DNA from: a virus
Lineage: Duplodnaviria > Heunggongvirae > Uroviricota > Caudoviricetes
DNA: 40,216 bases
IMG/VR virus record: IMGVR_UViG_2579779009_000004
Reading direction: 5' to 3' (one strand)
Shown here: one piece after another, positions 35,417-38,577 of the stretch
Layout of the letters: each line of letters begins with the position of its first letter
Position numbering within the stretch: position 1 is the stretch's first letter
Made by a program: the position numbers and the translations under genes
The notes under the pieces: model-generated
The model's database searches: none
The model's input: only the letters and a program-made list of their open reading frames with translations
What the model was told of the DNA's origin: nothing

Positions 35417-35636
35417 AGCCTGCTTCTCCTTGCCTTTCGGCACGTAAGAGGCTAACCTACATATGTCTAGCATGAAATTGGCCTCAGATTAATGTTAAGC
35501 GTCTTGCAGGACGCGTAATGTTAACTGGGGCTTTTCTCTATCTGCCGTTGGTGTTCATGCCCGAGGCAGATAGCCTCAAGCACCCGCAGCCATTCTACTT
35601 AACTACTGAAGTGGTCAACAAAAACTGGCCACCGAG

Positions 35637-36533
35637 TTAGAGTTTTTTCCAGTATCGATTTTCCGATTCGTTTGGTGGTAACCCACCATTATATTCGTGC
35701 GGTCTTAGTGCGCTGTAATATCCAACGATATAGTCCGTTATTGCGTGAGCTGCATCGCTGAAGCTTACATAGCCCGTCGCCGGCACCCATTCGTTCTTCA
35801 GACTCCTGAAGAAGCGCTCCATTGGGCTGTTATCCCAGCAGTTTCCACGCCGACTCATACTCTGCCTGATCCGGTATCTCCACAGTAACTGCCGGAACTG
35901 CCTGCTCGTATAATGACTGCCTTGATCGCTGTGGAACATCACCCCGACGGGCTTACCACGGGTTTCCCATGCCATTTCCAGTGCTTTCATGGTAAGCCTG
36001 CTGTCCGGCGAGAACGACATGGCCCAGCCCACTGGTTTTCTTGCGAACAGGTCGAGAACAACGGCGAGGTACGCCCAGCGCTTACCCGTCCAGATATAGG
36101 TCACATCACCGCACCACACCTGATTTGGCTCGGTCACGGCGAACTGCCGTTCAAGGTAGTTAGGGATAGCAACATGTTCATGACCACCACGTTTATACCG
36201 GTAAGTCGGCTGCTGACAGCTGACCAGCCCCAGCTCTTTCATGAGTCTGCCAGCAAGCCAGCGCCCCATCTGGTAGCCTCTCTGGGTTGCCATTGTGGCG
36301 ATGCTTCTTGCTCCGGCAGAGCCGTGGCTGATGCCATGCAGTTCAAGTACCTGGCTGCGTAATACAGCCCGTCTGCCGTCTGGCTTTTCAGGACGGTTTT
36401 TCCAGTATTTGTAGCTGCTGCGATGGACCCCGAACACATGGCAGAGAGTGGCCACAGGATAACGCGCCCTGAGTTTCCCGATTATCGAGAACTGTTCAGG
36501 GAGTCTGACATCAAGAGCGCGGTAGCCTTTTTT
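35637..36533 (-). CDS. IS911-like transposase OrfB (DDE catalytic domain), expressed as an OrfAB fusion by -1 frameshift
   Basis: The OrfB frame is open from the slippery heptamer A AAA AAG (minus strand, plus 36527-36533) to 35637 and carries an IS3-type DDE integrase core (…WCGDVTYI…[10 protein letters not shown]…). Confidence 0.85.
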
Positions 36534-36784
36534 AATATTTCATTTTCCATTTCAATACGTTGTAGCTTTTTCCTGAGCTCACGGATTTCAATTTGTTCCG
36601 GGGTAATAGGGGAGGCTTTTGGTGTTTTTCCCTGCCGCTCATCACGTAATTGTTTCACCCATCGCGTCATTGTGGAAAGGCCGACATCCATAGCGCTGGC
36701 TGCATCTGCCACGGTGTAATTCTGGTCAACGACCAGTTGAGCGGATTCGCGTTTAAACTCTGCGCTGAAATTTCTTTTTTTCAT
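36482..36784 (-). CDS. IS911-like transposase OrfA (HTH)
   Basis: [53 protein letters not shown]... (100 aa) with a leucine-zipper-like C-terminus. Confidence 0.9.
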
Positions 36785-36856
36785 TATGGCACCTGTGTTG
36801 TTCTGAGGTGAGCATATCACCTCTGTTCAGGTGGCCAAATTCAGTAAACCACTTCA

Positions 36857-38577
36857 ATGACGAACTGGCCTACGCTCTCTGGCCTGGTGATGTGGATGCC
36901 GGAAACATTGACGGCAGCATCCATCGCTGGGCAAAAAAAGAAGTTATCGACAACGACCGCGAAGACTGGAAGCGTATCTCGGCATCAATGCGCAAACAGC
37001 CTGATGCCCTTCGCTACGACCGCCAGACTATTTTTGGCCTTGTCCGTGAGCGTCCGATCGACATTCACAAAGATCCCGTAGCACTGAACAAATATATCTG
37101 CGAATACCTGACGACAAAGGGCGTGTTTGAGAATGAAGAAACAGACCTGGGCACTGTTGATGTTCTCCAGTCATCAGAAACACAAACTGATGCAGTGGAA
37201 ACTGAGGTATCTGATATCCCAAAAAATGAAACCGCGCCGGAAGCTGAACCATCTGTAGAGCGTGAGGGGCCGTTCTATTTCCTCTTCGCAGATAAGGACG
37301 GAGAAAAATACGGTCGCGCAAACAAACTTTCTGGTCTGGATAAGGCACTGGCTGCTGGCGCCACTGAAATCACAAAAGAAGAATATTTTGCCCGAAAAAA
37401 TGGCACATACACGGGCTTACCGCAAAATGTAGATACCGCTGAAGATTCAGAACAACCAGAGCCGATAAAAGTTACCGCTGACGAAGTAAACAAAATTATG
37501 CAGGCAGCCAATATCAGCCAGCCTGACGCTGATAAGTTGCTTGCTGCATCACGTGGTGAATTTGTTGAAGGGATTAGTGACCCGAATGATCCGAAATGGG
37601 TTAAGGGGATCCAGACCCGCGATTCTGTGAACCAGAACCAGCATGAATCGGAACGGAACTACCAAAAAGCGGAACAAAACAGTCCAAATGCGTTACAAAA
37701 CGAGCCAGTAACGAAACAGCCTGAACCAGTAGCGCAACAGGAAGTGGAAAAAGTCTGCACCGCCTGCGGTCAGACCGGCGGCGGCAACTGCCCTGATTGT
37801 GGCGCGGTGATGGGCGACGCAACATACCAGGAAACATTCGATGAAGAGTATCAGGTTGAAGTTCAGGAAGATGATCCGGAGGAAATGCAAGGCGCTGAAC
37901 ATCCACACAAGGAGAACACTGGCGGCAATCAGCATCACAATAGCGATAATGAAACTGGCGAGACGGCAGATCACCCAATTAAGGTGAACGGTCATCACGA
38001 AATCACATCCACCAGCAGGGCGTGTGACCATCTAATGATCGACCTTGAAACCATGGGAAAAAATCCTGATGCCCCGATCATCTCAATAGGTGCAATATTT
38101 TTCGATCCGCAAACCGGAGATATGGGACCGGAATTTAGTAAGACTATCGATCTGGAAACTGCTGGCGGAGTCATTGATCGGGACACCATTAAATGGTGGC
38201 TTAAGCAATCACGCGAAGCGCAATCTGCCATTATGACCGATGAAATCCCGTTAGATGATGCACTGTTACAATTGCGGGAATTTATCGACGAAAACTCCGG
38301 TGAATTTTTTGTTCAGGTTTGGGGAAATGGAGCCAACTTCGACAACACGATTTTGCGCCGTTCATACGAACGGCAGGGGATCCCCTGCCCGTGGCGTTAC
38401 TACAACGATCGCGATGTACGCACAATCGTTGAGCTGGGGAAAGCCATAGACTTCGATGCCAGAACGGCTATTCCATTCGAAGGTGAGCGCCATAATGCAC
38501 TTGATGACGCCCGTTACCAGGCAAAATACGTTTCAGTTATCTGGCAAAAACTGATCCCGAGTCAGGCTGATTCTTAA
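36857..38577 (+). pseudogene. 5'-truncated gene encoding a protein with a C-terminal DEDDh (DnaQ-like) 3'-5' exonuclease domain
   Basis: The reading frame runs straight out of the IS911 right end with no credible start or Shine-Dalgarno after the IS; the C-terminal region has Exo I/II/III motifs (HLMIDLETMG, VWGNGANFDNTIL, HNALDDARYQAKY); it is upstream of xis and int. Confidence 0.6.

Follow-up and report, generated by a model that had tools for sequence, protein, structure and literature searches.

How did a lambdoid prophage with complete structural and lysis genes come to lack its immunity and replication genes, and what part did the insertion sequence (IS) standing in their place have in the loss? 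The question is raised by the IMG/VR virus record IMGVR_UViG_2579779009_000004, a stretch of caudoviricete DNA of 40,216 nucleotides (nt), which we analyzed over its full length and call the window. The window is a whole prophage, from a truncated ydfJ gene (ydfJ′, 1–1284) to the stop codon of the integrase gene, and near the integrase end it carries an element that its sequence identifies as ISEc52. An earlier reading made from the letters alone (the original prediction) had described an IS911-like element at 35417–36860, and had proposed that an IS-mediated adjacent deletion or inter-IS recombination removed the immunity and replication module, leaving a non-inducible, defective prophage.

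A 7,706-bp block missing at the IS

A 24.9-kb query from the window was compared with complete Escherichia coli genomes, 542 of which matched over at least 80% of the query length. The best group, consisting of ATCC 25922 and other strains, was 100% identical over the covered 95% of the query, which aligned in two pieces. Against ATCC 25922 (NZ_CP032085.1), the window had no mismatch among 20,307 positions to the left of the IS and one among 3,360 to the right. The identity reached leftward to position 1285, and a single mismatch (at 39963) occurred in the roughly 37.7 kb compared outside the ydfJ′ flank. Precisely at the place of the IS, ATCC 25922 carries 7,706 bp (NZ_CP032085.1 668449–676154, positions 23308–31013 of our locus L003), and no ISEc52 sequence was found in its prophage. 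At the ancestral break points, the left side reads ...AACTAC|CGTTAC... and the right side ...ACACTGG|ATGACG..., and both flanks are colinear with the intact prophage and in the same orientation. The deletion is exact, its content can be read from the relative, and the IS at the junction is intact, as set out here:

35604–35606, no strand: left triplet TAC, the final bases in common with the intact prophage (L003 position 23307)
35607–36856, minus strand: complete ISEc52 (IS3 family, IS911-like), 1,250 bp, recognized by its inverted repeats, its identity to annotated copies and its domains
35637–36455, minus strand: IS orfB, DDE (rve) catalytic part; coordinates of the mechanical open reading frame (ORF)
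36482–36784, minus strand: IS orfA, 100 amino acids (aa); coordinates include the stop codon
36527–36533, minus strand: slippery heptamer A AAA AAG for a predicted −1 programmed frameshift, within the orfA/orfB overlap
36857–36859, no strand: right triplet ATG, the initial bases in common with the intact prophage (L003 position 31014), with no repeat of TAC

With a block missing from otherwise identical sequence and a single IS copy at the junction, the lesion is, on the evidence of this alignment, an IS-mediated deletion. ATCC 25922 and the other strains match both flanks and hold the missing block, which bears out the proposal that an immunity and replication module was lost through an IS.

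The lost block contains, in order, genes for a DUF4209 protein, a Ren-like DUF977 protein, an O-like initiator, a CII-like/YdaT protein, a Cro-like regulator and a helix-turn-helix (HTH) repressor, and then ydfA, a ydfB remnant, DicF RNA, dicB, ydfD and codons 1–250 (the 5′ 30%) of an exonuclease gene. The O-like replication initiator matched PHROG 391 (E = 3e-92), and the CII-like protein, the regulator and the repressor likewise matched PHROG families. DicF was recognized with Rfam (76.7 bits), and dicB, ydfD and ydfA are annotated in the ATCC 25922 record. Apart from the retained part of the exonuclease gene at 36857–38577, no match to DNA or proteins of the lost block was obtained in the window. 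The immunity switch and replication initiator of a functional temperate phage are therefore missing, the repressor, Cro, CII-like and O-like proteins all being unmatched there, and the immunity and replication genes have not simply moved to another part of the prophage. The original prediction had the whole early region replaced; the immunity, replication and dic genes are indeed gone, whereas the exonuclease gene keeps its 3′ 70%, and xis, int and the segment from hokD through rem and DUF968 to Q remain. It was also right that relBE and N are absent, but not in attributing this to the IS event: both are absent from the intact ATCC 25922 relative as well, and their absence is therefore no consequence of the deletion.

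The element itself is a complete IS3-family member of the IS911 type, as had been recognized, although the interval first assigned to it began 190 bp too early, within the sok/hok leader (35411–35585). Its 27-nt terminal inverted repeats lie at 35607–35633 (the transposase-downstream end) and 36830–36856 (the end upstream of orfA). The two arms are imperfect (78% complementary, TGAAGTGG...CCACTTCA), and the element starts with 5′-TG and ends with CA-3′. After a −1 shift, the conceptual OrfAB transposase is predicted to have 382 aa and to terminate at 35637. In the 100%-identical locus L005, orfA contains PF01527 (HTH_Tnp_1) and orfB contains PF00665 (rve) and PF13683 (rve_3).

All 1,250 of the 1,250 bp were identical to RefSeq-annotated ISEc52 copies in Nissle 1917 and seven other strains, the RefSeq label on these eight copies being “IS3-like element ISEc52 family transposase”; two more copies were 1 nt off. 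By this identity the exact name of the element is ISEc52, and “IS911-like” is fair as a description. With IS911 and ISEc52, IS3-family elements that transpose by copy-out-paste-in, the window copy shares the 1,250-bp length, the TG...CA repeats, the 100-aa OrfA, the A AAA AAG heptamer, the 382-aa OrfAB and the rve DDE domain. It differs from an ordinary copy in having no target duplication, and it is named ISEc52 and not IS911 itself.

Each of the eight copies identical to the window IS stands at a site of its own, and six have fresh target duplications; the element is thus evidently active. Copies of ISEc52 are widespread and are flagged by RefSeq as “frameshifted” pseudogenes. The orfB 3′ end corresponds to 35607–35660 of the window; the OrfB terminus there reads ...RYWKKL*, and the alternative frame reads differently. 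In view of the activity of the element, the pseudogene flag would seem to be an error of annotation.

IS flanks without a target duplication

The original prediction had noted TAC and ATG beside the element without a 3-bp repeat, and these triplets, found at 35604–35606 and 36857–36859, do differ. Re-inspection of the true IS ends revealed neither a 3-bp nor a 4-bp duplication at the window copy, the 4-bp flanks CTAC and ATGA also being unlike. The tips of the IS are unambiguous: its first base is T, whereas C follows TAC in the intact relative, and its last base is A, whereas G precedes ATG there. Because the ancestral bases next to the break points differ from the IS tips, the ends of the element are exact. 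Alternative ends that would yield a duplication were considered and ruled out, as the ends are fixed by the other copies together with the intact relative, and the flanks do not match at a length of 2, 3 or 4 bp.

As a control for duplication, we inspected ten other ISEc52 copies at different sites (loci L007–L016). Target duplications were present at seven, of 3 bp (AAC, ATA, GAT, CGT, ACA and ATT) or 4 bp (ATAA), and were absent from the remaining three (L008, L015 and L016). Since ISEc52 usually duplicates its target, a copy without a duplication signals a later rearrangement, and such copies are not rare. One of the three (L015) has a truncated type II secretion gene on either side, and another (L008) adjoins an inverted 174-bp IS fragment. 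All three are probably further IS-mediated rearrangements.

Targeting of an insertion to a place beside a sequence resembling the IS inverted repeat, which is known for IS911, was also considered. An 8-nt sequence in the right flank, AACTGGCC (36863–36870), occurs inside the IS terminal repeat as well (35623–35630). This candidate was ruled out because the match and the tip of the IS are not in register; it is most likely due to chance. No target resembling the inverted repeat was found at either break point, and a scan of the ancestral segment gave matches at the chance level only, with at least 6 mismatches in 20 positions.

Origin of the junction in a prophage of probably recent acquisition

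The prophage has the features of a lambdoid prophage at the Qin site: it extends from ydfJ′ towards rspB, has int and xis at one end, and contains late, lysis and Q modules. In locus L005, rspB follows int, and the order of the genes agrees with the ATCC 25922 annotation. In the left 15 kb of the window, all 29 differences from ATCC 25922 fall inside ydfJ′ (29 of 1,284 positions, 2.3%), and on the rspB side, beyond the integrase gene (L005 13410–16400), 47 of about 2,930 positions differ (1.6%). The ydfJ′ flank is identical to that of the phylogroup-B1 strains IAI1 and E24377A, and ATCC 25922 belongs to phylogroup B2. Because the switch in divergence coincides with the ends of the prophage, the pattern fits recent, independent lysogenization of two lineages by the same phage. 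On these sequence comparisons, the phage was probably acquired recently and then disabled.

The Qin cryptic prophage of E. coli K-12 occupies the same chromosomal site, from ydfJ′ to rspB, and has ydfK, pinQ, tfaQ, cspI, rzpQ, rrrQ, essD, cspB, ydfT, ydfU, rem and hokD in common with the window prophage. Qin of K-12 has kept dicA, dicC, DicF, dicB and relBE and lost its structural genes, whereas in the window prophage the structural and lysis genes are complete and the dic, immunity and replication block is gone. The closest counterpart is Phi1 of ATCC 25922, a mEp460-like lambdoid prophage (NZ_CP009072.1 3489917–3528128) that overlaps the intact relative (3477971–3509343 and beyond) by its coordinates. 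Phi1 is near-identical to the window prophage outside the deleted block, and differs in having the 7.7-kb early block and no IS. Phi1 DNA has been found by quantitative PCR in precipitated phage particles, and ATCC 25922 lysed upon treatment with mitomycin C (PMC10567762). The isolated phages HannyBb, mEp460, Tritos and cdtI were 96–98% identical to the prophage over the aligned structural and early modules. These isolated relatives, together with the Phi1 DNA in particles, support an active ancestor.

We consider it very probable that a recently acquired mEp460-like lambdoid phage at the Qin site carried one ISEc52 copy and then suffered an IS-mediated deletion of 7,706 bp. The phage would have integrated between ydfJ′ and rspB, would then have received one copy of ISEc52, and would finally have lost the DNA that once separated the present TAC and ATG triplets. 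Two routes could have led to this deletion. ISEc52 at one of the two sites may have transposed intramolecularly into the other (adjacent deletion), or a second ISEc52 in the same orientation may have inserted nearby, followed by homologous recombination between the copies. Because the two flanks would come from different target sites in either route, no target duplication would be expected. Both routes predict the state that is observed, namely one intact IS, hybrid flanks, no duplication and colinearity with the intact prophage. Either may apply, each being compatible with the junction, and no intermediate was found that would favor one of them.

Deletions of this kind have been recorded for another member of the IS3 family. 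For IS150, in three populations of the long-term evolution experiment, 14 of 83 IS events were associated with deletions; each of these lacked a duplication and followed upon an IS already present at the site (PMC11708052). The window junction resembles them in having a single IS3-family copy, no duplication and a deletion that starts exactly at the end of the IS, and its 7,706 bp fall within the reported size range of 14 bp to 48.9 kb. It differs in coming from a natural isolate without an earlier time point, so that the precursor insertion would have to be supposed rather than seen.

Several observations weigh against this reconstruction, all of them concerning what might have been found of its earlier stages or of the lost DNA. 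No precursor was found that would bear on the supposed order of events or favor one of the two routes: neither IS junction occurred among 5,426 complete E. coli genomes, exact patterns of both predicted single-insertion junctions were absent from metagenome contigs, and the intermediate junction predicted for the left site was absent from species-representative genomes. In addition, the absence of the lost segment is established for the window alone. The absence of a precursor is nevertheless uninformative, since few relatives have been sampled and the junction itself is known from a handful of samples; the actual left junction, searched as an exact pattern, was absent from the species-representative genomes too.

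Two strains with IS3-family elements near this region, JNQH497 (L001) and an O157:H16 strain (L002), were examined as possible intermediates and ruled out, as the elements have other positions and other flanks. These regions (L001 10883–15449 and L002 12605–13984) contain different IS3-family or ISNCY elements and other rearrangements, within a few hundred bp of the break point proximal to hok/sok. In the O157:H16 strain, a related IS3-family element with 88.8% identity to the window IS lies 139 bp further in, with unrelated DNA beyond it. In this type of prophage, IS elements seem to have rearranged the start of the early region repeatedly.

An alternative that we regard as improbable is that ISEc52 inserted in one step and without duplication, into or together with a double-strand break or a pre-existing deletion, and that this insertion was coupled to the 7.7-kb loss. 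Ngan et al. (2024) suggested such a route for a part of the rearrangements associated with IS elements, and it is yet to be demonstrated for a member of the IS3 family. It would accord with the lack of a duplication-flanked precursor at either site in any collection searched, which carries as little weight here as it does above, and such events have been reported for IS5 and IS481; however, for each of the 14 IS3-family (IS150) deletions a previous insertion of an IS at that place could be identified (PMC11708052). If it were true, the event would have been caught in nature in a freshly acquired, otherwise mutation-free, inducible phage. The extent of the deletion may in that case have been selected, loss of the repressor being survivable only together with loss of the early promoters, the replication functions and the killing functions dicB, DicF and ydfD.

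The other two alternatives question whether the block has left the genome, and both are affected by the occurrence of the junction in further assemblies. The exonuclease frame stays open over 49 nt of IS sequence, as far back as a GTG at 36808, and gene callers accordingly give a 589-aa product. An exact look-up of this product led to an NCBI scaffold (GCA_000692395.1, 4.55 Mb) and to a Logan contig of SRR1187737, 41 kb in length. Throughout the IS and its two junctions each is 100% identical to the window, although the two may derive from the same reads. As we understand the assembler, a branching repeat would interrupt a de Bruijn contig, and a contig that passes through the 1.25-kb IS therefore suggests that ISEc52 is single-copy in the SRR1187737 sample, which counts against both a collapsed two-copy assembly and a second copy with complementary flanks. 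Short-read assemblies commonly collapse at IS copies, and the junction might in principle be an artefact in which two ISEc52 copies 7.7 kb apart were merged and the segment between them was skipped. With the junction shared by the Logan contig and the NCBI scaffold, and with the contig unbroken at the IS, we regard an artefact as extremely improbable. Scarcely more credible is a translocation or inversion, in which recombination between ISEc52 copies would have left the early region elsewhere in the genome; such a copy would show the complementary flanks …CACTTCA-TACCGTTACC and ACACTGGATG-TGAAGTGG…. Our inspection was confined to the window, which leaves room for this explanation, but the colinear flanks in the orientation of the intact prophage fit a simple deletion, the Logan contig points to a single-copy ISEc52, and no small plasmid with the segment was found. 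As to persistence as a lambda-dv-like plasmid, no plasmid record contained at least 80% of the segment, and the best matches were to very large records.

Retained genes and the fate of the prophage

The following genes remain on either side of the junction:

32631–33383, minus strand: Q-type antiterminator gene (ydfT/quuQ homologue); Pfam Antiterm in L005, ydfT in ATCC 25922
33397–34446, minus strand: DUF968 gene (ydfU homologue), from the ATCC 25922 annotation and the L005 gene call
34793–35044, minus strand: rem; Pfam Rem
35261–35416, minus strand: hokD toxin gene, intact; ATCC 25922 annotation on identical sequence, Pfam HOK_GEF
35411–35585, minus strand: hok mRNA leader and sok antisense region, full length; Rfam RF01794 (sok), 112.7 bits, model positions 1–157 of 157
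36857–38577, plus strand: 3′ part (about 70%) of the prophage exonuclease gene, with codons 252–823 of 823 intact
38650–38901, plus strand: excisionase gene (DUF1233)
38936–40216, plus strand: tyrosine integrase gene, at the prophage end beside rspB; 1 nt off ATCC 25922, at 39963

Between Q and the xis/int end there are thus only the DUF968 gene, a 92-aa ORF, rem, hokD/sok, the IS and the exonuclease remnant, in agreement with the original description of a DUF968 gene, two small ORFs, hokD and the IS. The hok/sok leader ends 21 bp short of the IS, and the intact relative gives the same Rfam match. The right end of the IS does abut a truncated exonuclease gene, which is without its first 250 codons; codon 251 is rebuilt with the last base of the IS, and the remnant keeps the C-terminal 3′–5′ exonuclease domain. 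The predicted 589-aa product is chimeric, 16 of its residues being derived from the IS (36808–36856). A promoter scan of 35150–37050 revealed no hybrid outward promoter from the IS end for hokD or the exonuclease remnant, and with no promoter-like site upstream of the remnant its expression is doubtful. Elsewhere in the prophage, full-length matches to the Rfam cspA thermoregulator lie on the minus strand at 28828–29213 (112.8 bits) and 31724–32116 (158.8 bits), and are the 5′ leaders of the prophage cold-shock genes cspI and cspB.

The Q gene has lost its upstream early promoter region, and the divergent early promoters, which presumably lay between the genes for the repressor and Cro, would have been lost with the segment. 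With the regulators and presumably these promoters gone, Q, the lysis genes and the virion genes would have no early transcription feeding them, and xis and int, if expressed, would lack their usual regulators. On this gene content, the prophage is expected to be unable to start lytic growth, to replicate or to confer immunity, and to call it non-inducible, as the original prediction did, is a sound inference. While hok/sok, rem and the DUF968 gene are untouched, the killing functions dicB, DicF and ydfD were lost. A deletion of the repressor alone would have induced the phage, so that surviving deletions are likely also to remove the early promoters and replication functions. This constraint on survival may explain the extent of the deletion.

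Events of this kind are already known as textbook IS-mediated prophage decay, and neither the mechanism nor the element is new. The locus is a clean natural case, resolved to the base pair, of the inactivation of a prophage by an insertion sequence, in which the IS-linked deletion is the sole lesion. An intact twin of the phage is known and is reportedly inducible, and the flanking chromosome points to a recent arrival. The case might be used in teaching or be added to data on the rates at which prophages decay. The prophage of this strain should be scored as defective, although, as we expect, prediction tools based on a count of structural genes may rate it as complete.

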